From: Chloroflexota bacterium
GTDB lineage: Bacteria; Chloroflexota; Dehalococcoidia; JACVQG01
NCBI GenBank assembly: GCA_016210545.1
Contig: JACQTY010000032.1
Coordinates: forward strand, 1 to 53,212
Length of the DNA stretch: 53,212 nt
Reading direction: 5' to 3'
In this document: in pieces, positions 14,436 to 45,089 of the stretch
How the letters are laid out: every line of letters begins with the position of its first letter
Position numbering within the stretch: the first letter of the stretch is position 1
The notes under the pieces: model-generated
What the model was told of the DNA's origin: nothing
The model's database searches: none
What the model saw: the letters and a program-made list of their open reading frames with translations, nothing else
Translations under genes and position numbers: made by a program

Positions 14436-15113
14436 GTGACAGGGCCTATGTCAAAGGGAAAGTGTAGTTTTTGCAATGCCACTTTTAGTAAGGCGGCAAT
14501 GACCAGGCATCTGAAGTCATGCAAGCAAAGAAAAACTGCGTCAGAGAAATCAGCGCAGAATCAGAATTTACAGAAAGCTAAAAGTTTTCATCTTGTGGCT
14601 GAGGGACGCTACTTACGTGAATACTGGATGCATCTGATGGTACCATCTGCTGCAACGCTTGAGGACCTCGACAATTTTCTCAGAGGTATGTGGCTAGAAT
14701 GTTGTGGACACTTAAGTGCATTCACAATCGAAGAGAGAACGTACTCCATAAGTCCCATGAGAGAGTATAACGAAAGGAGTATGGCGGTTGCACTTGGTCG
14801 TATTCTCAGGCCCGGAATGAAAGTTTATCATGAGTACGACTTCGGCACGACTACAGAGCTCGTCCTGCGAGTTATGTCAGAACTGGGAAGTGGATCTAGA
14901 GGTAAATCTATTCAGCTTATGGCCAGGAATGAGCCGCCACTGATAGTCTGTGAATCGTGTGGCAAAGTTGCTACACAAGTATGCACTGAATGTATCTCAT
15001 CGGGCGAAGGATGGCTTTGTGATGAGTGCGCTCTGGAGCATGAGTGTGGCGAAGAGATGCTTTTGCCGGTAGTTAACTCCCCACGCGTTGGGATGTGTGC
15101 ATATGGCGGATAG
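14436..15113 (+). CDS. zinc-ribbon protein with pRiA4b ORF-3-like core (function unknown)
   Basis: 225 aa in a low-GC stretch. N-terminal CSFC..H..C. Central L.DLDNFLRGMWLECCGHLSAF resembles the PRiA4_ORF3 family. C-terminal Cys-rich CESCG..CTEC..CDEC. GTG start 7 nt after GGGAGGTG. Confidence 0.45.
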   Translation: MTGPMSKGKCSFCNATFSKAAMTRHLKSCKQRKTASEKSAQNQNLQKAKSFHLVAEGRYLREYWMHLMVPSAATLEDLDNFLRGMWLECCGHLSAFTIEERTYSISPMREYNERSMAVALGRILRPGMKVYHEYDFGTTTELVLRVMSELGSGSRGKSIQLMARNEPPLIVCESCGKVATQVCTECISSGEGWLCDECALEHECGEEMLLPVVNSPRVGMCAYGG

Positions 15114-16631: not shown

Positions 16632-16679
16632 ATCCCCCTACCCCCTTTACTAAAGGGGGCGAAGGAGGATTCCGTTACG

Positions 16680-19506: not shown

Positions 19507-21732
19507 TTACTGCAGGATGGCGTCCATCGCCAGCGCCGGGTGCCCCTTCTCCTGGAGCCAGGGCACCAACTGCTCGACGGTGGTGCAAATGGTGCCATCG
19601 GCGATCTTGTCCATGAGGTCGGGGACGCCCTCCCGCTCGCACACTTCCTTCAGCTCCTCGGCCATCTCCTCCTTGAGGTTCTTGGACAGCCACACCACCC
19701 GCTTGATGCCGCCTTCTTTGGAGATGAACTTCTTGCTCAGGATGTAGAACTTGCCGTGGCCCATCATGCCCGGCGTCTGTAGGCCGCCGCCCACGGTACC
19801 CATGAGGCTGGTGAAGGTCATGCCGGACGGGGTCTGCCCATAGTCGTCGCGAGACACTATCATCACGCCGTTGGTCTCGGGCAGCAATACCATTACGCAC
19901 TCGCAGCAGCCGCAGGTCGTCATGGGGGCGTCCATCAGCGAGTACAGGGTCATGCGCTGCACCGCCATGTTGGTGTGCTCGTAAACGAACTTGTTGGACC
20001 CCTCCCACTCGCCCTTCGAGGCGTCTACCACAGCGCCCTTGGGCACCGGCTGGTTGGGACCCCTGGGGTTGATCTCATAGGAAGCCCGGCAGTCCAGCCA
20101 GTTGTAAGCGCCGCACAGCCCCACCCGTTCCGGATTGATGACGCAGATATGGGTGGGGGCGAAGGACTGGCACAGCGAGCAGCTATAATACGTGTCCACC
20201 GCCTCATCGGTGAGGTTGGCGGTACGCACGTTGCGCTCCTGGTAGACCACCCTGGCTTGCTCCAGAAGGTCCTTGACCTTGGCCGGGTCGGTGTACAGGG
20301 TTATCTGAATCTTGTCCACGATAGCGCCGAACTGGTTGTGGAAAGCGGCGTGCAATATGTCTCCAATGTTCTTGATATGGAAGCCCTTGCTCACCGCCGA
20401 CTTACTGAAGCGGATCCAGGTTATGTCGCGCTGGCCCATGTGCTGGATACCCTCGGCGCCATTGGTGAAGTGGTGGATCTGCCTTTCCAGCACGGGCTCG
20501 AAGTCCTTGTTCATCTTGCGACCGGCGACATCGACCATGATGGCCAGGGGCATCTTGGACCCCATCGGGGCGTCGTCGAGTTCCGGGCCGACCACGGTTA
20601 TCTTGCCGTCCTCGACCTCATCCAGGTTCTTTGTCTGCAACCATTCGAAGGCCATGCCACCCTTGCCGCCGAACTCTACCCGCAGGTTCTCCTTGCGGAC
20701 AACCTCGCCCTCGAAGGCCGGGCCGTAGGCGACGGGGATCTTGATCTGGGCGACCTTGATCTTGATGCCTCGAATTTCGATGCAGCGCTGCACCAGCCTC
20801 TCGGCCTTCTCCAGGTCGTCCTTGCCGGCGATATCATCGAAGGGGAGGCTCACCACGTGCTCATACTTGGTAACGCCCGTAGGCAGGATGTTGGGGATGG
20901 CGGTATCGGCGATGACGGGGAAGCCATAGTTGATGGCGCCGGCGGCGGTGGCATACTTCAGGTCGTCCACCGGACCCAGCGCCAGGGCGAAGGCGAAGCA
21001 GCGGAACTTGTTGTACAGCAGGTTGGCCCGGGCATCGCCCGCTTTGAACCCGCCGAAGCTGATGCCGGCGCGGGTGGCGTAGCCCAGGGCGTAGATGGCC
21101 GAGACGGTGTCCGTGCCGAAGGTCACGGTGAAGGTATCGTAACCCAACTCCACGCCCGACTCCAGCAACTGGTCGATGATGGAGCGGCCCTTGTTGTTGC
21201 CGATGAGGAAGACGAGCTGTCCCTTGGACTGAAGCTCACGGACGATCTTGACGGCGACCTCGTTGCTCTTGGCGGCGCCGATGATAGCGGCGAAACCGGG
21301 CATGCGGCCGTCCACCATCTGGATGCCCCAGGCCCTCATCTGCACGTCGTCGATGGGGCCGTTGAGCTTGTAGCCGTTCCTGACCTCCGGCTGCTCCCCC
21401 TTGGCCCAGCGCACGCCCTCGATTATCTCTTCGGCATAGAGGGTAGCCATGCCGGCGTCCAGCGTCTCACCCAGGTAGGGCAGCCACAGGTTGCCGCGAG
21501 GCACCGGGGGCAGCAGGTCTTTGGCGTGCTGCAGAGGCCAGTTCAAATCAGAGAGCTTCTGGACCTTGTGGGCGGTCAGACCGTAGATCACGGGGAGAAA
21601 ATAGGTGGTATTGGGGAAGGCGACCGGCGTATCCGGGCCGAGTTTCTGGACCGCGTCCGTCAGGAGCTTGTCGGCCTCATCAACGATGGCGCGGGCGCCG
21701 CGGATGGCGGCAGTGGCGATAAATCTAGACAT
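19507..21732 (-). CDS. acsB: acetyl-CoA synthase catalytic subunit (A-cluster)
   Basis: 741 aa, the length and collinearity of bacterial AcsB. A-cluster Cys motifs (CSLCQSFAPTHIC, MTTCGCCEC). SD GAGGAGG. Confidence 0.9.
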   Translation of the reverse strand: MSRFIATAAIRGARAIVDEADKLLTDAVQKLGPDTPVAFPNTTYFLPVIYGLTAHKVQKLSDLNWPLQHAKDLLPPVPRGNLWLPYLGETLDAGMATLYAEEIIEGVRWAKGEQPEVRNGYKLNGPIDDVQMRAWGIQMVDGRMPGFAAIIGAAKSNEVAVKIVRELQSKGQLVFLIGNNKGRSIIDQLLESGVELGYDTFTVTFGTDTVSAIYALGYATRAGISFGGFKAGDARANLLYNKFRCFAFALALGPVDDLKYATAAGAINYGFPVIADTAIPNILPTGVTKYEHVVSLPFDDIAGKDDLEKAERLVQRCIEIRGIKIKVAQIKIPVAYGPAFEGEVVRKENLRVEFGGKGGMAFEWLQTKNLDEVEDGKITVVGPELDDAPMGSKMPLAIMVDVAGRKMNKDFEPVLERQIHHFTNGAEGIQHMGQRDITWIRFSKSAVSKGFHIKNIGDILHAAFHNQFGAIVDKIQITLYTDPAKVKDLLEQARVVYQERNVRTANLTDEAVDTYYSCSLCQSFAPTHICVINPERVGLCGAYNWLDCRASYEINPRGPNQPVPKGAVVDASKGEWEGSNKFVYEHTNMAVQRMTLYSLMDAPMTTCGCCECVMVLLPETNGVMIVSRDDYGQTPSGMTFTSLMGTVGGGLQTPGMMGHGKFYILSKKFISKEGGIKRVVWLSKNLKEEMAEELKEVCEREGVPDLMDKIADGTICTTVEQLVPWLQEKGHPALAMDAILQ

Positions 21733-22011: not shown

Positions 22012-22515
22012 CTAGTAGCGGCGGAAATCACCGGTCATCTTGGCATCCATCGGGTCAGTAGCGGCCATCCGGCTGGCGTTATTGAAACCGGCGTTAGGGG
22101 TCTTCCTCTGGATAGGCAGCACACCGTTCTGCGCCGAGCGCAGCAGACGCAAAGCCTGGGCCAGGTGGGCCTCCTCGCCGTGAACGGTGACGAGGACGCC
22201 GCCGGTAGTCAGGCCGAACTCATAATAGGAATAGGTCTCCGGGCTGGCCCCGATGGCTTTGGCCAGCGCCTTGCCGGCGTCTTCCTTCTCCGCGGCCAGG
22301 TCTTTGGCCAGGGCGCCCAGCGCCGTGACCTCGCCGACCCTGGGCAGGGTGACCTCGGCGGTCTTGGAGCCGACGAGGGAGAGCAGGCGGCGGCCGTCCT
22401 TGAGGCGCATGAGCAGGCCGATCTCCTCCTGCTTATAGCCCTTGGCCAGAAGCTCGCCTATAGCTTTTGTGGCGCTTTCGGGGTCGCGAAAGAGCCTGGC
22501 GATGGTTTTTGTCAT
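22012..22515 (-). CDS. hypothetical protein with YflT/general-stress-17M-like N-terminus
   Basis: 167 aa. The N-terminal pattern (F.D.ESA.KAI.EL...GY..EEI) recalls the stress-protein family. No catalytic motif seen. Confidence 0.4.
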   Translation of the reverse strand: MTKTIARLFRDPESATKAIGELLAKGYKQEEIGLLMRLKDGRRLLSLVGSKTAEVTLPRVGEVTALGALAKDLAAEKEDAGKALAKAIGASPETYSYYEFGLTTGGVLVTVHGEEAHLAQALRLLRSAQNGVLPIQRKTPNAGFNNASRMAATDPMDAKMTGDFRRY

Positions 22516-22795
22516 GGGGGGACTCCTTAACTACAGATTCAGCCTGCATTGCATGACCCAAGACGAGGTAACACTATTGTAAGCAGGACACCGAAGTTAT
22601 TTTAGCATCAGGTAGAGGGAGAGTCAAACAAGGGGGGGTGCGCGACGGGGGACGGTGGGAGGGCCGGTTGTCCGTACACCACCAACTTTTGGAGAAAGGT
22701 GCGCCCTTGGAGGTGGAAGCCTCTATCGAGTGCTCGGCGCTCTGGAGATAAGAGCTACGGGATCCCCTGTTGTTGAAGCCAGATTGCCTGATGAT

Positions 22796-22824
22796 TTCAC
22801 AAACGTGGCGACTTATGCTAATAT
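22796..22824 (+). promoter_or_regulatory. extended -10 promoter TTCACA-17-(TGc)TAATAT for the unknown two-gene operon
   Basis: TTCACA 22796-22801, 17-nt spacer ending in TGC, TAATAT 22819-22824. GAGGTG SD lies 9 nt before ATG 22886. Confidence 0.55.
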
Positions 22825-22885
22825 TTGGGCAAGATTAACGGCCAATCCGCGTGGAGAGAGCCACACGGCATGAGGTGCAGCAACA

Positions 22886-23992
22886 ATGAACCGCATGGAC
22901 TTTACATATCTATTTTACGATCAAGTTCGGGGCCGGGATAGTCTCTTTGCGGGGCTGGATGCGCTGCAGGGGACTGAGCCTCACAAGTTGACCATGGTTC
23001 CGTACGGCAGCGATTGCGCCCCAAGTGAATGCTTCAAATCCGATGCAAGAAACAGAAGCTTTGAACTAGTTCGGGACTCTGGGGAAGTGTGGCTTTTCAA
23101 GTTGCTTTTCAAGCCTGCGAAGGGAAGCGGAAACGAGGACGCACTAGAAGGGTCCTTCTTTGTCTCCGCCCACCCCACTCTTTCAAAGGTATTCTTGGTC
23201 ACGACGATCGAGCCTGTTGATTTTGTCCGTAGGGCTCTCATGCCGTTTATTAGGCGAAAGCGGGCTCAAATCTATCTCACGTTTGTGAAACACGATGACC
23301 TCCGTAGATTGCTGCAAGAATTCCGCAGGAACAACGCATACACAGACCTGAGAGTGGTTCGGGCTTCGTCGGTTAGCCGCTTCGGCGCAGAGAAGGGCGA
23401 AGCCATGATTCCATCTGTCAGTTGGCCTGGACTTGGGCTGGAGCAAGCGTTTCTTTATGCGGAGGAGCAGAACGGCTGGTTTAGATCCCTAACGTTCGAG
23501 GCCCTGAAAGACTCCAGAGTGCTGGGCGAAACCACCGTGTACAGGAACGGCGTGACAAAAACTGACGGTGGTTTCTCGGGGGTTTACCGGGGTCTCATTT
23601 CACCCATATGTGAGTTGGTGGGTAGCAACCTAGAGCTTTTCGCGAAACGCGGCAGGCGCGAGAATCCACATTTGGCTGTGAGGCCACTCACGATTGAATT
23701 CCCAAAAGAACAGTTTTCGAAGGTTGAAGAAAACGCCCGGTTTATCAGCGCTGTCCGCAAGCTTGATAATGCTTCTATATCTGTGATTCACGGCAATCCC
23801 TATATAGCCTTGTCCGTCGTCGACTACACCGACGGGAGTACGTTCGACTTGTGGGTTTTGAATCCCCGCGAGGTTGTCATTGTTCCCCAGTTGAAAAGCA
23901 CTGTCCTTGGAATAAAGCGGCTGATCAGCTGCGTTTTCGATAATTATGCTGAGGGATTGATACGAGAGTTTTCGGCGGCAGGAGCGGTGTAG
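22886..23992 (+). CDS. hypothetical protein (368 aa), no recognisable domain; gene A of a foreign two-gene operon
   Basis: Long ORF with its own SD. Codon usage is rich in AGA/AGG, TTG and A/T-ending codons, unlike the flanking genes. No P-loop, TM helix or metal motif seen. Confidence 0.7.
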   Translation: MNRMDFTYLFYDQVRGRDSLFAGLDALQGTEPHKLTMVPYGSDCAPSECFKSDARNRSFELVRDSGEVWLFKLLFKPAKGSGNEDALEGSFFVSAHPTLSKVFLVTTIEPVDFVRRALMPFIRRKRAQIYLTFVKHDDLRRLLQEFRRNNAYTDLRVVRASSVSRFGAEKGEAMIPSVSWPGLGLEQAFLYAEEQNGWFRSLTFEALKDSRVLGETTVYRNGVTKTDGGFSGVYRGLISPICELVGSNLELFAKRGRRENPHLAVRPLTIEFPKEQFSKVEENARFISAVRKLDNASISVIHGNPYIALSVVDYTDGSTFDLWVLNPREVVIVPQLKSTVLGIKRLISCVFDNYAEGLIREFSAAGAV

Positions 23993-25038
23993 TGACCTCG
24001 GACGACTTACGCCGATTGATACGGGACAAAGAGAAAGTAATCCGCGACCAAATTGACGACTACACCGATACTGTGTACGCCATCCTGGGATTTTGCAGCA
24101 TGTGGTTGTTCGATCCGGCGACGCGGGCTGACAGGCCAAATGTGAAAGTGTTCCAGGGTCGGCATCTTTCGCCAAGGGGAAATGAGGCTCAAGCAGTTGT
24201 AACTCCGGATCTCGGCATAGTAATGCGTGAAGAGACCGGAATTCTGGGCGAAGTGAAGAAGAATTTTCCCAGGGATGGCGAACTGCGCAAAAAAGACATA
24301 TTCGACCAGCTCAAGTCATATGATCAGCAAATGACAGGGTGGCCCACTCAAGACGAGCAACTTAGGCGTCACGACATAGCGCTGCTTGTACATCAAACAA
24401 CATCGCGCTCGGCAAGCGACTACCTAGCCGCAGAAACCCGTGCGGGCAGACTCAAATTCGACCGCTCGCTTGGCATATTTGAATTCAATCGGTCGGACCA
24501 GCGGATCCCCTACTTCTTCTTTAGGCTTGTCGAAGGGCAAGCAAGCGAAGTGTTAGGTACCATTGATGTTCGCCAAGGGGTTCAAGTGCCCATGCAGGCA
24601 CTACTTGAGTCATACTCCAGAAGCAAGTTGTATGATGCCAAACCGCCTCAGCCGTATCTCTTGCATCTGATATGGGAGAACGTCGTCGTACCAATTGCAT
24701 CCCAAGACGAACGCTTTTCTCGGCTTCGGCGGAACCAGACGATAGAGGTTAGCCTAACTGTGGAGGACATCGTGGAGAGACTTCACGAGAGTTTTTCCTT
24801 CTTGCACTGGCACAGAGGCTATCCCAATAGGCAACCACATATTCCAAAGAGTGAATGGATCGGGGAAGCTTGCCAGGCCATGGTGGACGTGGGAGAAGCG
24901 AAGTGGGTAACTGGAGGCTCCCAGGTGGTCGTGTCCTACCGTAAGTATGACGATGTCTTGAAGCATTTTGTTGACTCACAGGCTGAATTGGAAGCAAAGT
25001 CAGATCAACAGCCGAGGCTCTTTAACAACAATGGTTGA
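23992..25038 (+). CDS. hypothetical protein (348 aa) with a PD-(D/E)XK nuclease-like motif; gene B
   Basis: GTG start overlaps the gene A stop (TAGTG). AVVTPDLGIVMREETGILGEVKK (P72-D73 ... E87-V88-K89; nt 24205-24258) has the spacing and hydrophobic-strand context of PD-(D/E)XK. Same atypical codon usage as gene A. Confidence 0.65.
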   Translation: MTSDDLRRLIRDKEKVIRDQIDDYTDTVYAILGFCSMWLFDPATRADRPNVKVFQGRHLSPRGNEAQAVVTPDLGIVMREETGILGEVKKNFPRDGELRKKDIFDQLKSYDQQMTGWPTQDEQLRRHDIALLVHQTTSRSASDYLAAETRAGRLKFDRSLGIFEFNRSDQRIPYFFFRLVEGQASEVLGTIDVRQGVQVPMQALLESYSRSKLYDAKPPQPYLLHLIWENVVVPIASQDERFSRLRRNQTIEVSLTVEDIVERLHESFSFLHWHRGYPNRQPHIPKSEWIGEACQAMVDVGEAKWVTGGSQVVVSYRKYDDVLKHFVDSQAELEAKSDQQPRLFNNNG

Positions 25039-25201: not shown

Positions 25202-25411
25202 TCAAGGGTGCGACACCTCAACCTGGACCATCTCCTCTTCCGCCTTTGGTTCCAACGGCGTGCTGAGCATGTCCTCGGCGCCGATTCTCAGCGATTCGAT
25301 TAGTTCCTCCCCGCTTCTTTCCTGGGCGTTCACGCCCGGCAAGTCCACCAACCAGCCTATCCACCAGCCATCGCCCTTCTTGATGACAGCCCGGAACTGC
25401 ATGGATTTCAC
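25202..25411 (-). CDS. HicB-like antitoxin, orphan (no hicA partner)
   Basis: 69 aa. FRAVIKKGDGWWIGWLVDLPGVNAQERSGEELIESL fits the HicB/UPF0150 pattern. The upstream region is REP sequence only. Confidence 0.65.
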   Translation of the reverse strand: MKSMQFRAVIKKGDGWWIGWLVDLPGVNAQERSGEELIESLRIGAEDMLSTPLEPKAEEEMVQVEVSHP

Positions 25412-25571
25412 CCTCCCTATTTGGGAAAAGGGACATCCAGGTCCCTGTAGGGGCGACCCTTGTGGTCGCCCAGGGCAGGCACGAGACCTGCCCCTACGGA
25501 CGGGGGTCTCCCCCGCTGCATCATGACGCGTTCTACGCGGCAGTTAGCTCCTAGGCTGGCTGTACCGCGGT

Positions 25572-25712
25572 CTATTGCGGCCAGTTCTCTATTGTGGCCC
25601 TCTCCCATTCCTTGTTGAGCGCGGCGTCCTCTTCACGCGCAGCCTTGTAGCCTTCAATGAGGGCCTGTGTGAGATGTTCCTGTTCCAATTTGTTCAGTTT
25701 CTCCGTGTCCAT
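25572..25712 (-). CDS. small hypothetical protein (46 aa), antitoxin-like helical peptide
   Basis: Internal ATG 25712 of track ORF 25572..25778, preceded by GGGGTGG. The charged helical sequence LTQALIEGYKAAREEDAALNKEWE recalls small antitoxins. Weak call. Confidence 0.3.
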   Translation of the reverse strand: MDTEKLNKLEQEHLTQALIEGYKAAREEDAALNKEWERATIENWPQ

Positions 25713-25847
25713 CAGCCACCCCCCGCTGGAGACCACTTCCAATTTACTTGTTATCTCTACTCGCAGCAAGGGTAACAAGTTCGCATGGGGTTGGTCAAAT
25801 GACGGGGTGGTTCAGTGGCCGGTCATTGATGGGTCGAAAACCCCCTC

Positions 25848-25869
25848 GCCCCCTTTGCGTAAAGGGGGC
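25848..25869. repeat. representative CCCCCTTT-N4-AAAGGGGG hairpin
   Basis: GCCCCCTTT-GCGT-AAAGGGGGC. Related copies are at 13817-13833, 16002-16016, 16641-16659, 25996-26014 and 35053-35072. Confidence 0.8.
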
Positions 25870-26108
25870 AACGGGGGCCCAAGCAATGCCAGACTTCCCG
25901 TGTGCAAGGAGAAGGCTTTCCTGGCAGCCCGTCCCGCCAGGAAACAAAGGCGTAACACGGGCGATTCACGAATCGCCCCTACGGAATCCCCCTGGCCCCC
26001 TTTAATAAAGGGGGGGACCAGCCCGCTTTGGCGGACTGGCCGGGAGATTCAGCCGTCAATTTCCGCAAAAACTGCACCTGCCCCTATCTGTCGGGGCACA
26101 AAAACGCC

Positions 26109-26137
26109 TTGACACAGATTTCACGAAACCGTATAAT
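26109..26137 (+). promoter_or_regulatory. perfect consensus sigma70 promoter TTGACA-17-TATAAT upstream of the glutamate synthase operon
   Basis: TTGACA 26109-26114, 17-nt spacer, TATAAT 26132-26137. About 217 nt lie between it and the first start codon (26355). Confidence 0.7.
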
Positions 26138-26354
26138 GAAACATGCTTTGTCGGCAAACGGTTGCCGATGTCGTCTGGTCGGTTCGGAGGGTGCTGGAAA
26201 AGTCCTAATCAACCCCCTAAATCCCCCAATCTCATTCGGCAAGCTCAGGGCAGGCTTGGGGGAGTGGGGATTCTGTCCCGATATATCGGGAAGACCCCCG
26301 TCCCCGATTTATCGGGGAACCTCTTTTTCGGCATCTCGTTTGTGTGGAGGCCCT

Positions 26355-26828
26355 ATGAAACGTATTTATCCCCGGGAAGAGGTCTGCATCGGCTGCCGCC
26401 TGTGCGAGGTCCACTGCCTGGTGGCCCATTCCAAATCAAAGGACATCATCAAGGCGTACAAGCGGGAGACGCCCCGGGCCGTGCCCCGCATCCGCCTGGA
26501 GGCCAGGGGGCCTGTCTCCTTCGCCCTCAATTGCCGCCACTGCGAAGAGCCGTCGTGCGTCCAGGCATGCCTCACCGGCGCTCTCAAGAAGGACCCCGAT
26601 ACCGGTATAGTTACCGTAGATACCGAGAAGTGCGTCGGCTGCTGGACCTGCGTCCTCTTCTGCCAATATGGCGCCATCACCCCCGATGTGGAGCGCGGCA
26701 AGATAGCCAAGTGCGATTTCTGCATGCATCTCAAGGAGCCGGCCTGCGTGGCCAACTGCCCCAACGAGGCCCTGCTCCTGGTAGAGGAAACCCCGGAGAA
26801 GCCGCCTAAGGAGCCTGCCCATGCCTGA
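26355..26828 (+). CDS. 4Fe-4S polyferredoxin (DmsB/NrfC-like) of the glutamate-synthase-type operon
   Basis: Track ORF 26028..26828; real start is ATG 26355 after GGAGG. Cluster motifs CIGCRLCEVHC, CRHCEEPSCVQAC, CVGCWTCVLFC, CDFC..ACVANCP. Confidence 0.8.
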   Translation: MKRIYPREEVCIGCRLCEVHCLVAHSKSKDIIKAYKRETPRAVPRIRLEARGPVSFALNCRHCEEPSCVQACLTGALKKDPDTGIVTVDTEKCVGCWTCVLFCQYGAITPDVERGKIAKCDFCMHLKEPACVANCPNEALLLVEETPEKPPKEPAHA

Positions 26829-28095
26829 ATACCTTATTATAGGCAACTCCGCCGGCGGCATCGGCGCCGTTGAAGCCATCCGCGAGGTGGACAAAGATGG
26901 CGCCATCACCATTGTCTCCGACGAGCCTTACCCGGCCTATTCCCGGCCTATGATCTCGGAGTACCTCTGCGGCGAGCGCAATCTGGAGCAGATACTCTAC
27001 CGGCCTTCCGATATGTACAGCCGTAACCACATCGACGCCCGGCTGGGCAAGAAGGTTGTGAAGCTTCACATCGACGCCCGGCAGGCCGAGTTAGAGGGTG
27101 GCGAGAAGATCGGCTGGGAGAAGCTGCTGTTGGCTACCGGAGGCACGCCCATCGTCCCGGCTATGGAGGGCATGGGCAAGCGGGGCATCTCCACCTTCAC
27201 CACTCTGGACGACGCCAAGGCCATCGAAGCCCTGAAAGGCCAGGCCCGCCGCGCCGTGGTCATCGGCGGCGGGCTCATCGGCATGAGCGTTACCGAGGCC
27301 CTGGTCAAGCTGGGCCTGGAGGTGGCGGTCGTCGAGTTGATGGACCGCGTGCTGGGCGCCCTCCTGGACGAGCCAGCCTCCCGCCTGGTGGAGACAAAGC
27401 TGCTGTCCAACGGGGTCAAGCTCTACACCGACAAGACGGTCAAGACCATCGCCGGCCGGGGCGCCAACGACAGCATCGTGGGTGGGGTTGTGCTGTCCGA
27501 CGGCCAGAAGCTGGACTGCGACCTGGTAATTGTGGCCATCGGCGTCAGCCCGCGGACGCAACTGGTCAAGGATACCCTGGTGAAGCTCAACCGGGGCATT
27601 GTGGTGGACAACCACATGGCTACGAACGTCGCCGGCATCCATGCCTGCGGCGACGTGGCCGAGGCCTACGACTATGTTTACAGGACCTTCCGTTTGACGC
27701 CCATCTGGCCCAATGCCTACGTGGGCGGGCGCGTTGCCGGGTTCAACATGGCGGGGAAGACCACCGAGTACCGGGGCGGCACCAATGCCAACTCGCTGAA
27801 ATACTTCGGCCTGCCAGTGGTGACCGCCGGAATGGTGAACCCGCCGTCGAAAGACGGGCTGGAGATTATCTCGAAGGCTGAGGGCGATGTCTACAAGAAG
27901 GTTATCCTCAAGGGTGGCCGCATCCAGGGCATAGTGTTCATGGGGGATATCCAGCGGTCGGGGATAGTCTTCGGGCTGATGCGGGATGGGGTGGATGTGA
28001 CCGGTTTCAAGGACAAACTGCTTTCCGAGGACTTCGGTCTGAGCTATCTGCCGGAGTCAATGCGCAAAGAGAAGATAAAGGCCGGCTCCCGGTAG
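26821..28095 (+). CDS. NAD(P)/FAD-dependent pyridine-nucleotide-disulfide-family oxidoreductase
   Basis: 424 aa. Two Rossmann dinucleotide motifs (IIGNSAGGIGA, VVIGGGLIGMS) plus ACGDVA. Overlaps the preceding gene by 8 nt. Confidence 0.85.
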   Translation: MPEYLIIGNSAGGIGAVEAIREVDKDGAITIVSDEPYPAYSRPMISEYLCGERNLEQILYRPSDMYSRNHIDARLGKKVVKLHIDARQAELEGGEKIGWEKLLLATGGTPIVPAMEGMGKRGISTFTTLDDAKAIEALKGQARRAVVIGGGLIGMSVTEALVKLGLEVAVVELMDRVLGALLDEPASRLVETKLLSNGVKLYTDKTVKTIAGRGANDSIVGGVVLSDGQKLDCDLVIVAIGVSPRTQLVKDTLVKLNRGIVVDNHMATNVAGIHACGDVAEAYDYVYRTFRLTPIWPNAYVGGRVAGFNMAGKTTEYRGGTNANSLKYFGLPVVTAGMVNPPSKDGLEIISKAEGDVYKKVILKGGRIQGIVFMGDIQRSGIVFGLMRDGVDVTGFKDKLLSEDFGLSYLPESMRKEKIKAGSR

Positions 28096-34928: not shown

Positions 34929-35077
34929 CGGACATTATTTTACAGTATTTGGCTTCTCCTCAGTCGGGTCACCGAACCCAAGCTCCTCACTTGCGAGTCG
35001 TCCACGCCCTGCTTGCTTGCGAAGATGTGCCAGGCCGACGCGTCGGCCCAACCCCCCTTTACGTAAAGGGGGCAGTT

Positions 35078-36552: not shown

Positions 36553-37695
36553 ATGAGGAACCTATTAGCATTGAGTGTGGCTATGTCAATCGTGCTCCTC
36601 GTGATGGTGGGCTGTGCTTCAAGTTCACCTGTTCCTCTCTCGGGTACCCCCACGCCTGTAGCATCGGCGCCCTCCACATCGGCGCCCGCCTCAATGCCTG
36701 CCCCAACAGGGGATGCCGAGTGGGCGAAGGTGGTAGCAGAGGCTCAAAAAGAGGGAAAGGTTAACATTTATACCTTTTGGATAACTGGCGACGCCAGTAA
36801 AGCTGTGGCCGATGCTTTCGAGAAGAGGTATGGCATCAAGGTGGAAATGGTTACTGGTGTGGGCTCAGTCCTGATTGAAAGGATCAAAACCGAACAGATT
36901 GCTACTAAATATGTCGCCGACACCTTCGATTCTGCCATTTCCCTCGTGGCCATGGCCAAGGAACAAGGTCTTCTGCAGAAGTGGGGTTATCTCCCCATTC
37001 TTTCTGAGAAGGACGTGTGGCGAATACCTCCGCGTGTAGATGCCGAAGACCAGATCGTTGACGGTGGTGTAGGGCACGTGACCACGATGGTTAATACATC
37101 CCTTGTAAAGTCGGGCGATGAACCCAAATCCTTTAAGGATTTCCTGGACCCCAAATGGGGTGGCGGCAAGATATCAATTGCATCCCCCGTCACTGCACCG
37201 GTCTCGATAATGGCCTATGTGGCCAAGATGGTTGACGATGACTTTTTCATACGCCTGGGTAAGAACAATCCGAAAATAGGGCCGACTGTGCGCGACTCTA
37301 TAAACGCTGTTGCAAGGAGTGAAGCAGCCGTTGAGTTCTTGATGACAGACTCCATTACAGCTACGTTGGTGGCCAGGGGCGCTCCGTTAAAGGCCATCGA
37401 ACTGACAGAGGGCGCACTGCGCATCCACGGCTTGACCATAACGCTGGCGAAGAATGCCCCACACGCCAATGCGGCGCGGGTCTTCACCAACTGGCTTCTC
37501 TCACGTGAAGGTCAAGAGGCTTACCACAAGGCATCGTCAAGTACCCCGGTCAGGAAGGACATGCCCAGCTTTATGCCCGCTGCGGTGACAGTCGACTACA
37601 AGAAAGTTACCAACCTCGGCCTTGAAGACATGTTGAAAGTTTCTAAGATACAGGGGGAAGGGACTGTGGCGAAGCTTTTGGGCCTTATGAAATAG
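36553..37695 (+). CDS. ABC-transporter periplasmic substrate-binding lipoprotein (family 1, iron(III)/polyamine-like)
   Basis: 380 aa. Signal peptide with lipobox LVMVGC. Fold pattern of SBP_bac_1/6 proteins. Confidence 0.7.
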   Translation: MRNLLALSVAMSIVLLVMVGCASSSPVPLSGTPTPVASAPSTSAPASMPAPTGDAEWAKVVAEAQKEGKVNIYTFWITGDASKAVADAFEKRYGIKVEMVTGVGSVLIERIKTEQIATKYVADTFDSAISLVAMAKEQGLLQKWGYLPILSEKDVWRIPPRVDAEDQIVDGGVGHVTTMVNTSLVKSGDEPKSFKDFLDPKWGGGKISIASPVTAPVSIMAYVAKMVDDDFFIRLGKNNPKIGPTVRDSINAVARSEAAVEFLMTDSITATLVARGAPLKAIELTEGALRIHGLTITLAKNAPHANAARVFTNWLLSREGQEAYHKASSSTPVRKDMPSFMPAAVTVDYKKVTNLGLEDMLKVSKIQGEGTVAKLLGLMK

Positions 37696-44426: not shown

Positions 44427-45089
44427 ATGCCTGTCAGTCTAACGTTTGACAGCGATGAAGCTACATACTTGGACAAGATATCGAAGTTTTACGAGATAAC
44501 AAAAGAGCTACTGATTTTTGGGGAGCAAATAGATCCAGAGAACAATACCCTCAGTCAGACGATAAACGAACTGAGAAACTGCCTCGACCACCTCATGCGG
44601 GTGGTGTCGTTCAAGTTCGGCAACCGTGAAATGGCCGAGGGCGCGAACTACGCAAGAACCAACCTTGACAAAGCTTACGGCCATGTTTATCGAGCAGCTT
44701 ATGATACTCTGGACTGGGTCTCGCTAAACCTGAAAGACCGAATGATATCTGAGTTGAACGGCTTTACGATTGAGACGATACAGGCTGTAATACCAGAGTA
44801 CTTCACAGACATAAAACCGAAGCTAGACCGAATACTCAATGAGGAAGTGACGAAGTTACGATCGGAAAAGGATATAGCCGCCTCCAGCGAAGATAACTTT
44901 ATCAAATACGTCAAGGTTACCGCAGAACTGAAGCAATTGGTGCAGGCAGTCATAGACAAGAAACCCGCGCTGGTGGAGCATCGAACTCGACTCGGGCGAT
45001 CGAATCGCAGGAAGTTGGTAGGGAGAATCCTCGAAAACATAGCCGTGGCGGCCGCCGCTGGCCTACTTGTGTGGGCCTTGACGCGTTGA
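44427..45089 (+). CDS. hypothetical helical protein with an Rx4H motif and a C-terminal membrane anchor
   Basis: 220 aa, low GC. ELRNCLDHLMR (R50-x4-H55, nt 44574-44591). C-terminal hydrophobic helix ILENIAVAAAAGLLVWAL after a basic stretch RLGRSNRRK. Confidence 0.55.
   Translation: MPVSLTFDSDEATYLDKISKFYEITKELLIFGEQIDPENNTLSQTINELRNCLDHLMRVVSFKFGNREMAEGANYARTNLDKAYGHVYRAAYDTLDWVSLNLKDRMISELNGFTIETIQAVIPEYFTDIKPKLDRILNEEVTKLRSEKDIAASSEDNFIKYVKVTAELKQLVQAVIDKKPALVEHRTRLGRSNRRKLVGRILENIAVAAAAGLLVWALTR

Follow-up and report, generated by a model that had tools for sequence, protein, structure and literature searches.

A horizontally acquired, translationally coupled gene pair encoding a predicted PD-(D/E)xK nuclease and a partner of RdgC-like fold is a candidate undescribed immunity module

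The window analyzed here is a 53,212-nucleotide stretch of a Chloroflexota genome (Dehalococcoidia; GenBank assembly GCA_016210545.1, contig JACQTY010000032.1). It contains two co-directional open reading frames (ORFs), called gene A and gene B below, which are flanked by acsB and, downstream, by oxidoreductase-type genes. Positions are those of the window.

22796..22824, + strand: promoter-like site 5′ of gene A, TTCACA-17-(TG)cTAATAT (consensus scan)
22872..22877, + strand: Shine-Dalgarno-like GAGGTG, 8 nt 5′ of the ATG of gene A (read from the sequence)
22886..23992, + strand: gene A, ORF of 368 aa with an ATG start
23771..23968, + strand: most conserved part of A, residues 296-361 (alignment A1, 52 sequences)
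23990..23994, + strand: TAGTG junction of A and B, with TAG at 23990-23992 and GTG at 23992-23994 having one base in common (read from the sequence)
23992..25038, + strand: gene B, ORF of 348 aa with a GTG start
24205..24321, + strand: putative catalytic motif block of B, P72-D73, 13 residues, E87-V-K89, then Q106-x-x-x-Y110-D111
24649..25011, + strand: C-terminal winged-helix-like region of B, residues about 220-340 (DSSP order, Foldseek)
25202-25411: small ORF
25572-25778: small ORF
26028-26828: 4Fe-4S ferredoxin-type protein, downstream of the cassette
26821-28095: FAD pyridine-nucleotide-disulfide oxidoreductase of the PadH/NirB type, downstream of the cassette

The overlapping two-gene layout and the Shine-Dalgarno sequence proposed in an earlier, sequence-only reading of this DNA are both present, and the start codons of A and B match the N termini of their homologues in the alignments. 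The extended -10 promoter that had been assigned to the pair fared less well. A site with the TG element does exist, but it scores 9/12, and the region holds five promoter-like sites compared with 1.8 ± 1.4 in shuffled sequences, so the promoter is weak evidence; the promoter rules of Dehalococcoidia, moreover, lie outside the consensus used in the scan. A terminator scan found no terminator after B. Of the features claimed around the pair, the two “orphan antitoxin-like genes” could not be upheld: neither small ORF has a match in Pfam, NCBIfam or PDB sequences, and comparison with the HicB neighbor of another locus gave no support. The supposed downstream glutamate synthase is better described as the ferredoxin-type protein and FAD oxidoreductase listed above. 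The “dense REP cluster” proved to be a real dispersed palindrome (four sites in the window, where chance predicts 0.16) but with just two copies at that place. No DNA methylase lies within or adjoining the cassette in the window.

The base composition and codon choice of the pair are foreign to the surrounding DNA, as had been claimed. GC content is 0.50-0.54 over 22.8-25.0 kb compared with 0.60-0.66 in the flanks, and the GC3 values of A (0.59) and B (0.57) contrast with those of acsB (0.87) and the downstream oxidoreductase (0.84). In this Dehalococcoidia window, typical genes have GC3 values of 0.78-0.87; A and B lie about 0.25 below host genes. AGA/AGG, TTG and CTT codons are heavily used in A and B, while CGC/CGG and CTG are used in the flanking genes. 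Among 47 host loci compared, 45 have a cassette with a lower GC content than the flanking DNA, with a mean difference of 6.7 points. In the three closest relatives, as judged by AcsB, the YflT-like/acsB gene pair is conserved, A-B is absent beside it, and everything beyond it is different, with no clean insertion boundary. The gene pair is horizontally acquired. At the boundary, direct or inverted repeats flanking the cassette did not go beyond short matches at chance level, and no tRNA gene, integrase or Rfam element was found near the cassette in the window. The pair was also considered as the core of a transposon or integrative element; this was rejected because it has no terminal repeats, nearby tRNA or conserved recombinase, recombinases being only sporadic neighbors.

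Conserved A-B adjacency in other genomes, proposed beforehand as a check, was found in 94 of the 94 loci with sequence at that place, archaeal and viral contigs included; in each of them, B follows A immediately and in the same orientation. The A stop and B start codons overlap in 59 of 72 nonredundant loci and lie no more than 10 nt apart in 70 of the 72. A-B is an obligate unit. A conserved third gene was sought and rejected, the best neighbor cluster occurring in 7 of 98 loci of a partly redundant set. Family A, with 120 matches in a first search and 730 cluster representatives (50% identity) in a deep search, is more widely conserved than family B, with 68 matches; no fusions of A were present among the 150 matches listed. 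At one locus (L107), A has been kept and B lost.

The pair is found in about 10 bacterial phyla, in Nitrosopumilus, on plasmids of haloarchaea and Arthrobacter (carriers include a plasmid of Haloarcula marismortui ATCC 43049) and on one viral contig. Named hosts are Aminicenantes, Acidobacteriota, Planctomycetes, Verrucomicrobiota, Omnitrophota, Bacillota, Syntrophorhabdaceae, Pirellulales, Chloroflexi and Nitrosopumilus, and one carrier element has a serine recombinase, ArdC and a primase aboard. The cassette is mobile, and its distribution is patchy. No relatives of A were found in 50,697 phage genomes, and 2.9 million viral contigs gave a single distant match; A is thus not a typical phage gene. 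These distributions bear on whether A and B could be a housekeeping DNA repair pair of the host that is foreign in looks only. Core metabolic genes do neighbor the pair in the window and at several other loci, but the pair is missing from the equivalent position in the three closest relatives, is scattered over unrelated phyla of both prokaryotic domains and departs from host composition as described above, all of which makes this explanation very improbable.

Neither protein could be placed in a named family, in agreement with the sequence-only reading. Searches of Pfam, PADLOC, NCBIfam and PHROGs were empty for the window proteins: A had no Pfam match at an E value of ≤1, and PADLOC-DB v2.0.0 gave zero matches at an E value of ≤1 for either protein. 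When 129 members of the two families were scanned singly, no recurrent Pfam or PADLOC match emerged from scattered noise, the PADLOC-DB matches being single, unrelated and at E values of ≥7e-4. Among the 75 A-family members scanned against Pfam at an E value of ≤0.1, there was no match, RdgC (PF04381) included. Family profiles searched against PDB sequences gave nothing meaningful for either A or B (cryptochrome and uL30 at E values of 0.01-0.1). A described system, a transposon or a housekeeping function had been named as what such profile searches might reveal, and no confident match of any of these kinds was obtained for A or B. The libraries date from 2023 to 2026, and “undescribed” is used here as judged against these libraries alone, not against the literature.

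Gene B encodes an acidic protein (pI 6.2) in which a PD-(D/E)XK motif had been pointed out from the sequence. The motif, AVVTPDLGIVMREETGILGEVKK, was found in B and is borne out across the family: in alignment A2, P72, D73, Q106, Y110 and D111 are invariant (54/54), E87 is conserved in 53 of 54 sequences (one has D) and K89 in 52 of 54. An AlphaFold2 (AF2) model of B (pLDDT, 92.9; pTM, 0.90) has the alpha-beta-beta-beta-alpha-beta order around D73, E87 and K89 that had been named beforehand as a test of the nuclease assignment (DSSP: H3-39, E51-54/59-61, E74-78, E82-88, H97-108, E126-134). In the model, D73 immediately precedes strand 74-78, E87 and K89 are at the end of strand 82-88, and helix 97-108 contains Q106; a conserved acidic residue, D22, is in helix 1. 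With these residues on this core, B looks like an active PD-(D/E)xK nuclease. The Q-x-x-x-Y that follows the ExK strand is a signature of the RecB/Cas4/lambda-exonuclease branch. Cas4-type nucleases carry a four-cysteine Fe-S cluster. B departs from the Cas4 type in this respect; Q-x-x-x-Y is present in 54 of 54 sequences, but the window protein has only two cysteines (C35 and C293), with none among the invariant or near-invariant columns of A2. The C-terminal region of B (DSSP: H220-236, E251-256, H257-268, H270-274, H287-299, E303-307, E311-316, H322-339) aligns by Foldseek with the winged-helix domains of ROQ, MarR, GntR, Cdt1 and cullin WHB at target-normalized TM scores of up to 0.59. The best structural match of B, a weak one, is the type IIS enzyme PaqCI (8em1; E = 1.3e-3, probability 0.8, TM 0.26), followed by weaker matches to SduA (E = 0.42), McrC and Bax1 at E values of 0.4-0.5.

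Gene A encodes a basic protein (pI 8.8; family median, 8.1) in which no recognizable motif had been seen. A is not featureless. Its AF2 model (pLDDT, 90.4; pTM, 0.90) comprises three alpha/beta domains and resembles, by fold only, RdgC and TBP-like-domain proteins. In the PDB, Foldseek aligned A with E. coli RdgC (2owl) at E = 1.5e-5 and probability 1.0 over about 299 columns, with superposition at TM 0.29-0.33 and an rmsd of about 10 Å. In a viral library, phage RdgC models were matched at probability 1.0, several at E values of about 1e-4, with TM scores of 0.28-0.37. TM scores confined to 0.28-0.37 indicate that the RdgC-like domain arrangement differs in A. Membership of A in the RdgC family PF04381 by sequence was ruled out, there being no profile match in either direction; a profile of alignment A1, for example, did not match RdgC chains among PDB sequences. 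Since the likeness is at the level of fold, without a sequence or profile signal, a ring form of A and DNA binding by A are assumptions. The invariant residues of A (A1, n = 52) are S299, H302, N304, P305, Y306, D313, D316, G317, S318, W323, P334, Q335, E356 and G357, and residues 296-361 are a candidate functional site or interface with B.

Structures of RnlA (Foldseek probability, 0.8-0.94) and a phage RNase LS-like model were also matched by A, and this partial likeness to the N-terminal TBP-like domains of a toxin raises the possibility of a toxin-antitoxin, addiction or abortive-infection module. A would then restrain a toxic nuclease B until infection or loss of the cassette released it; B would kill the cell, and the carrier plasmid or island would thereby be stabilized. 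Tight translational coupling, a fixed gene order and carriage on plasmids and islands would suit such a module, and the loss of B with retention of A at L107 fits a costly B. However, A, at 368 aa, is a large protein; it is conserved more widely than B, does not have the small DNA-binding or labile character of a type II antitoxin and contains no HTH, RHH or AbrB domain. The pair has no conserved small gene beside it, and no toxin-antitoxin or Abi model in PADLOC or Pfam matches. We regard an addiction role as improbable.

The defense-type label given to the pair by the sequence-only reading draws its support from gene context. Restriction-modification, NACHT, Abi_2, SNF2 and mobile-element neighbors recur, but many loci are flanked by housekeeping genes; this is so, with no other kind of flanking gene, for roughly half of the sampled loci, the present window included. 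A restriction-modification, NACHT, Abi or SNF2 gene lies within 5 kb at no fewer than 18 of 51 loci, a raw count from crude ORF calls, without a matched background and with several positive loci contributed by just two clades. Among 249 neighboring ORFs, ResIII was found in 12 and DNA methylase domains in about 10 (N6_Mtase, 4; N6_N4_Mtase, 5; Eco57I, 2; one protein may count under more than one of these). The neighbors also included type I S subunits, SNF2, Schlafen/AlbA_2, NACHT, integrases and transposases. One locus (L011) has the order SNF2, SMC-like ATPase, A-B, Mod, Abi_2, Res; the viral contig has the order Mod, Res, HhH-GPD, A-B; and at a third locus (L067) B is followed by a methylase gene whose start overlaps the B stop codon. 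Methylases adjoin A-B in some clades only.

Such neighborhoods, together with the match to PaqCI, invite comparison with a modification-dependent (type IV-like) or solitary heteromeric restriction endonuclease, in which B would cut and A would be the specificity subunit for marked foreign DNA. Recognition of marked DNA by A would explain why no methyltransferase is needed, and none is conserved with the pair. The PD-(D/E)xK core and winged helix of B, its best match being a restriction enzyme, and the repeated adjacency to type III-like Mod/Res genes, including the overlap at L067, point the same way. Against this, Pfam and Foldseek revealed no modified-base reader (SRA, YTH, EVE, DUF3427 and the like) and no NTPase, and the fold of A resembles nonspecific DNA binders rather than base-flipping readers. 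This form of the idea seems unlikely. It is a subcase of a defense role and not an exclusive alternative to it.

A role in recombination is a live alternative because phage RdgC-like proteins are annotated as recombination proteins, although we judge it unlikely. Here the pair would be a recombination or repair module of mobile elements, with B as an end-resecting exonuclease of the RecB or lambda-exonuclease type and A as an RdgC-like recombination modulator, the cassette serving recombination in the element or its host instead of immunity. Consistent with this, Foldseek matches A best to cellular and phage proteins named “recombination-associated protein RdgC”; the Q-x-x-x-Y of B is typical of end-processing RecB-family nucleases; and the pair occurs on plasmids and a viral contig. 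However, the pair has no conserved association with a single-strand annealing protein, recombinase or helicase, and its near absence from the phage and viral collections counts against this role. On the viral contig, the pair adjoins Mod/Res and not a replication or recombination module, and the neighbors that recur are restriction-modification and NTPase defense genes.

A linked pair found across phyla, without an annotated family and often beside restriction systems, makes A-B a good candidate for an undescribed immunity module. We put the probability that it is a self-contained, mobile, two-protein nuclease defense module, independent of a methylase, at about 0.5. Such a module would act against invading DNA, whether phage, plasmid or other mobile elements. 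B would be the effector, a metal-dependent PD-(D/E)xK nuclease whose C-terminal winged helix probably holds nucleic acid. A would be made in fixed proportion with B by translational coupling and would probably bind it in a complex. Its part may be to recognize targets or to exert control: it would bind or encircle DNA and recruit, activate or restrain B. A bolder version, which we consider rather improbable, is that A-B represents an ATP-independent class of immune nucleases in Bacteria and Archaea. In that version, a ring of RdgC-like A would load only on free DNA ends, tell foreign from self DNA by its topology and clamp the RecB-type B for processive destruction of linear invaders, as a motorless counterpart of RecBCD/AddAB or of Shedu-type end sensing.

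If confirmed, the proposed function would make A-B an additional, compact immunity system of two genes, drawn from two protein families that lack annotation; family A by itself comprises hundreds of 50%-identity clusters. Carriers of the pair occur in many poorly studied anaerobic and sediment phyla, in ammonia-oxidizing archaea and in haloarchaea, lineages with thin defense inventories because discovery work is mostly done in E. coli and Bacillus. The unusual part is the RdgC-like partner, since a ring or clamp binder joined to a nuclease would suggest recognition of foreign DNA without a methylase or ATP. The idea is directly testable because members occur in cultured, genetically accessible hosts (H. 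marismortui ATCC 43049 and the hosts of the Arthrobacter plasmids). Should the pair instead serve recombination or addiction, a fold assignment and a functional partner would still be gained for two sizeable orphan families.

Several known systems resemble A-B in part. Classical type I-III restriction-modification was rejected, as the window cassette has no methylase and no third gene is conserved over 98 loci. RnlA has TBP-like N-terminal domains, and RnlA-RnlB and LsoA-LsoB are likened to the pair through the alignment of A with RnlA structures; A, however, lacks the HEPN RNase domain, the effector role would fall to a second protein, a DNA-type nuclease, and no gene for a small antitoxin accompanies the pair. 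Shedu consists of one protein, SduA (8ps5), whose nuclease domain is of the DUF4263 type. Like the effector proposed here, SduA is of the PD-(D/E)xK kind and has no methylase or ATPase, and it is weakly matched by B in Foldseek, but B has no PADLOC or Pfam match to it and A has no Shedu counterpart. Methylase-independent restriction endonucleases (type IV and type IIS-like, such as PaqCI) likewise combine a nuclease with a DNA-binding domain and share restriction-rich neighborhoods with B, but the match to PaqCI is weak and B is accompanied by a separate A. With the RecB/Cas4/lambda-exonuclease branch, B has in common the acidic residue of helix 1, PD, ExK and Q-x-x-x-Y; it differs in having no profile match, no helicase or other partner domain and a C-terminal winged helix. 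RdgC is a ring-shaped dimer that binds double-stranded DNA (entry titles of 2owl and 2owy), is encoded by a stand-alone gene not known to be coupled to a nuclease and is linked to the control of recombination, not immunity. It has no sequence or profile similarity to A, but it is the best structural match of A in both the PDB and the viral libraries, and A is of similar size and basic like a DNA binder.

Genes A and B are co-directional, overlapping ORFs, as the sequence-only reading had described: in the window sequence, one base is common to the TAG stop codon of A and the GTG start codon of B, and both start codons match the N-termini of homologues.

Features of the gene pair and its surroundings in the window
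19507-21732, minus: acsB, directly preceded by the YflT-like gene
22012-22515, minus: YflT-like protein, 167 aa (weak match, Pfam E=0.01)
22599-22670 (region), minus: promoter-like site TTGACT-17-TAAAAT with TG (10/12, strong)
22796-22824, plus: promoter-like site TTCACA-17-TAATAT with upstream TG (consensus scan, 9/12)
8 nt upstream of A, plus: GAGGTG, read from the sequence
22886-23992, plus: gene A, 368 aa, ATG start
23992-25038, plus: gene B, 348 aa, GTG start
25202-25411, minus: small ORF
25572-25778, minus: small ORF
16640-16660, 25849-25868, 25995-26015 and 35053-35072: REP-like palindrome CCCCCTTT-N3-TAAAGGGGG

The foreign composition claimed for the pair was borne out. GC content is 0.50 to 0.54 over A-B versus 0.60 to 0.66 in the flanks, GC3 is 0.59 (A) and 0.57 (B) versus 0.78 to 0.87 in typical window genes, and the described bias toward AGA/AGG, TTG, and CTT codons is present. 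The same was found elsewhere: cassette GC was below that of the flanks in 45 of 47 loci (mean difference, 6.7 points), and foreign composition is therefore a trait of the family. A promoter had also been proposed; the site exists, but at 9/12 it constitutes weak evidence for an A-B promoter. A scan downstream of B for intrinsic terminators found none. The minus-strand promoter-like site faces the YflT-like and acsB genes, divergent from the A-B site, and is adjoined by a very G-rich tract (GGGGGGGTGCGCGACGGGGGACGGTGGGAGGG, ~22620-22670). Further low-GC ORFs, at 14436-15113 (plus; 0.47), 44427-45089 (plus; 0.49), and 36553-37695 (plus; 0.53) in a window of 0.60, may be additional foreign insertions; the first two had no match in an NCBIfam search, and the third bears a weak resemblance to an ABC substrate-binding protein of the PhnS type.

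Other descriptions of the surroundings fared less well. The two small ORFs, called antitoxin-like, had no match in Pfam, NCBIfam, or PDB, and no profile or PDB search supports that identity. A GC-rich hairpin element (GGGGCGACCCTTGTGGTCGCCC plus following sequence; 25440-25510), present once in the window, sits in the gap separating the two. The "REP cluster" reflects a real dispersed palindrome, with four window sites versus 0.16 expected by chance, but the supposed cluster consists of two copies just 3′ of the cassette, within 34-nt repeat units (25835-25868 and 25982-26015). The downstream "glutamate synthase" is not one in the narrow sense; the genes there encode a 4Fe-4S ferredoxin-type protein and an FAD pyridine-nucleotide-disulfide oxidoreductase.

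The nearest relatives of the window's AcsB, 81 to 92% identical, come from organisms named Dehalococcoidia or Chloroflexota. Three of them with long contigs lack A-B and keep the YflT-like gene and acsB; beyond these two genes each differs, with SurE, a xanthine-dehydrogenase-type operon, or UvrD. Because the pair is absent and the region divergent in all three, A-B lies at a synteny breakpoint and is specific to the window genome. Repeats, a tRNA gene, and a recombinase were sought around A-B as marks of insertion, and none was found. The YflT-like gene directly precedes acsB in the window and in 3/3 relatives (L099, L100, and L101), and the L099 protein has a PF11181 match on record, which suggests that, in Dehalococcoidia, the acetyl-CoA synthase operon has a conserved, uncharacterized partner gene. 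In an unrelated host (L105:1-11044; identity to the window proteins, 35% for A and 37% for B), A-B likewise lies ~4.5 kb from a CODH/ACS cluster (RACo, CdhD, and a pterin-binding protein); this shared proximity is probably coincidence.

Adjacency of the two genes beyond the window, a point raised in the sequence-only reading, proved general. The sample comprised 98 loci taken from genomes, metagenomes, and one viral contig. Sequence continues past A in 94 of them, and in 94/94 the next gene is B, encoded on the strand of A; the remaining four contigs stop at A. Stop and start codons overlap in 59 of 72 non-redundant junctions (45 of these by 4 nt), and spacing is at most 10 nt in 70/72. A toxin-antitoxin or addiction module could also take the form of such a linked pair, although we regard this as quite improbable. 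The sole locus seen with A alone, fetched after the linkage sample, is L107:10001-11290 (GCA_040960995.1, JBFONA010001492.1), where B has shrunk to a short remnant ORF that retains the family's C-terminal Q-x-x-L-F tail. Its next gene is convergent and encodes a KAP-NTPase/FGE-sulfatase protein.

The distribution is patchy and spans both prokaryotic domains. Bacterial hosts include Aminicenantes, Acidobacteriota, Planctomycetes, Verrucomicrobiota, Omnitrophota, Bacillota, Syntrophorhabdaceae, Pirellulales, and Chloroflexi; archaeal hosts include two Nitrosopumilaceae. Distant A-B-like pairs (24 to 27% identity), every gene annotated hypothetical, occur on plasmids of Haloarcula marismortui ATCC 43049 (plasmid pHMA33, L102:6956-9210, also NC_006389.1; WP_049938376/WP_049938374), Halosegnis marinus (L104:6599-8781; WP_276236300/WP_276236299), Natrinema, Halosimplex, and Arthrobacter. 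Their downstream genes match the B profile weakly (hhalign probability of about 50%). The Halosegnis pair neighbors genes for a DUF1156 protein, an HNH endonuclease, and an IS5 transposase. Plasmid pairs of cultured haloarchaea are possible experimental entry points. Host housekeeping repair is a highly improbable role for a pair distributed in this way, even with the purely housekeeping contexts described below.

Both families are orphans by sequence. A and B had no match in Pfam, PADLOC, NCBIfam, or PHROGs at E≤1 except one meaningless NCBIfam match (E=0.21), single scans of 129 members of the two families gave no recurrent Pfam or PADLOC family, and the family profiles matched no PDB chain. 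Word-indexed search returned 120 relatives for A and 68 for B; each is annotated "hypothetical," and none carries a Pfam domain. An exhaustive profile search for family A returned 730 cluster representatives (50% identity) at E≤1e-3, with 336 reaching E≤1e-30; among the matches listed, most were about 360 to 390 aa long, some were shorter fragments, and none was a fusion protein.

The AF2 model of B is confident (pLDDT, 92.9; pTM, 0.90). It comprises a long helix (residues 3 to 39), strands at 51 to 54, 59 to 61, 74 to 78, and 82 to 88, a helix at 97 to 108, and a strand at 126 to 134, in the modeled order of an alpha-beta-beta-beta-alpha-beta core. D73 (54/54 sequences) lies just ahead of the second core strand, and the third strand ends in E87 (53/54) and K89 (52/54), in agreement with the proposed PD-(D/E)XK core. 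Helix 1 carries D22 (49/54), and Q106-x-x-x-Y110, in the helix after the ExK strand, is invariant; we take this motif to be the signature of the RecB/Cas4/lambda-exonuclease branch. Residues ~220 to 340 are modeled in a winged-helix-like helix/hairpin order, and B matched many winged-helix domains (e.g., ROQ, MarR, GntR, Cdt1, and cullin WHB). In Foldseek against PDB no match fell below E=1e-3; PaqCI, a type IIS enzyme, ranked first (E=1.3e-3; probability, 0.8; TM, 0.26), followed by SduA, McrC, and Bax1 (E of 0.4 to 0.5). We consider it likely that B is a divergent, probably active member of the PD-(D/E)xK nucleases, equipped with a winged-helix domain that binds nucleic acid.

The model of A is likewise confident (pLDDT, 90.4; pTM, 0.90), with three alpha/beta domains. 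Its best PDB matches were RdgC of E. coli and P. aeruginosa (E=1.5e-5 to 3e-4; probability, 1.0), with about 260 to 300 aligned columns and a TM of 0.28 to 0.33, followed by the kinetochore proteins Iml3, CENP-L, and CENP-N, then RnlA, and weakly TBP. A viral library returned several models of phage "recombination-associated protein RdgC" at probability 1.0, as well as TBPs and an RNase LS-like protein. No sequence-level link between A and RdgC was found, and A falls outside the RdgC family in the sequence test. Invariant residues cluster in the C-terminal domain (S299, H302, N304, P305, Y306, D313, D316, G317, S318, W323, P334, Q335, E356, and G357); R220, R255, and R257 are invariant as well. 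Family A is basic (median pI, 8.1) and family B acidic (median pI, 5.8). We tentatively regard A as related to RdgC only remotely and by structure, with presumed TBP-like domains and probably nucleic-acid-binding.

Neighboring genes would fit a role in conflict with foreign DNA. Among 249 crude ORFs within four genes of A-B at non-redundant loci, the Pfam families that recurred most were ResIII (12), Helicase_C (10), DEAD (8), SNF2-related (5), N6_N4_Mtase (5), N6_Mtase (4), Eco57I (2), Methylase_S (2), Schlafen/AlbA_2 (3), HATPase_c_4 (3), the rve-type integrase cores rve_3 (3) and rve (2), and Phage_integrase (2). Matches to NACHT and YhcG nuclease were also present; the rest were housekeeping enzymes. 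PADLOC matches in the first half of the sample were type I S subunits, type III and type II methylases, and mad2/mad5, with 3 to 4 neighbors each. DNA methylase genes, and likewise ResIII helicase genes, account for well below 1% of genes in prokaryotes; a share of 4 to 5% among immediate neighbors here suggests substantial enrichment over that general rate. A count seeded with 16 previously annotated neighbors places such defense-type genes within 5 kb of A-B at 18 or more of the 51 non-redundant loci whose flank reaches at least 3 kb; the figure is a lower bound, and several positive loci fall in two clades.

One clade has A-B in an uninterrupted same-strand series with an N6_N4 methylase, sometimes Abi_2, and a ResIII helicase. 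The order at L011 (8874-16529) is SNF2, SMC-like ATPase, A-B, N6_N4 methylase, Abi_2, and ResIII; in the related L067 (2422-8973), B's stop codon and the methylase start overlap. Mod/Res genes of type III-like kind also lie near A-B in at least three independent lineages. The loci behind these observations are L067, L011, L069:11089-17620, L014, L018, and L103 (the Arthrobacter plasmid pJ337-114); the arrangement could reflect a functional link or mere defense-island clustering. No third gene is conserved beside A-B across the 98 loci. A type IV-like restriction enzyme would be a sub-case of defense, for which the PaqCI likeness of B may be noted; we consider it unlikely.

A viral contig with a tail-tube gene carries Mod, Res, HhH-GPD, and A-B, in that order, and one A-B element bears a serine recombinase, ArdC-N, primase, and Vsr plus a C5 methylase. 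An exonuclease with an RdgC-like accessory could serve mobile-element recombination in such settings, but this too seems unlikely; no relative of A was found in 50,697 phage records. Other contexts hold a type IIG enzyme and DUF4917; NERD and a Y1 transposase; DndB-like, radical SAM, HATPase_c_3, SNF2, and Toprim genes; and NACHT- or KAP-NTPases fused to FGE-sulfatase domains. Among nine contexts picked for long available sequence alone, about five or six show defense or mobile-element genes at distances up to 10 kb; three or four look purely housekeeping.

The simplest account, which we infer, is a mobile nuclease module of two proteins that works independently of a methylase in conflicts with foreign DNA, and we put the probability of a generic defense nuclease module at about 0.5. 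B would be the effector nuclease and A a stoichiometric, nucleic-acid-binding partner, presumably in complex with B, that would recruit B, activate it, or hold it in check. More speculatively, if A formed an RdgC-like closed ring, loading at free DNA ends only would provide topological discrimination of self from foreign DNA, and the RecB-type motifs of B would suit degradation directed from DNA ends.

Judged by libraries alone, the pair is undescribed in Pfam (2025), NCBIfam (2026), PHROGs v4, PADLOC v2 (2023), PDB sequences and structures to 2026, and BFVD; a recent publication may have named it. In kind, A-B is a nuclease-based accessory cassette, a familiar category. What is distinctive is its RdgC-like partner and its reach across both prokaryotic domains.
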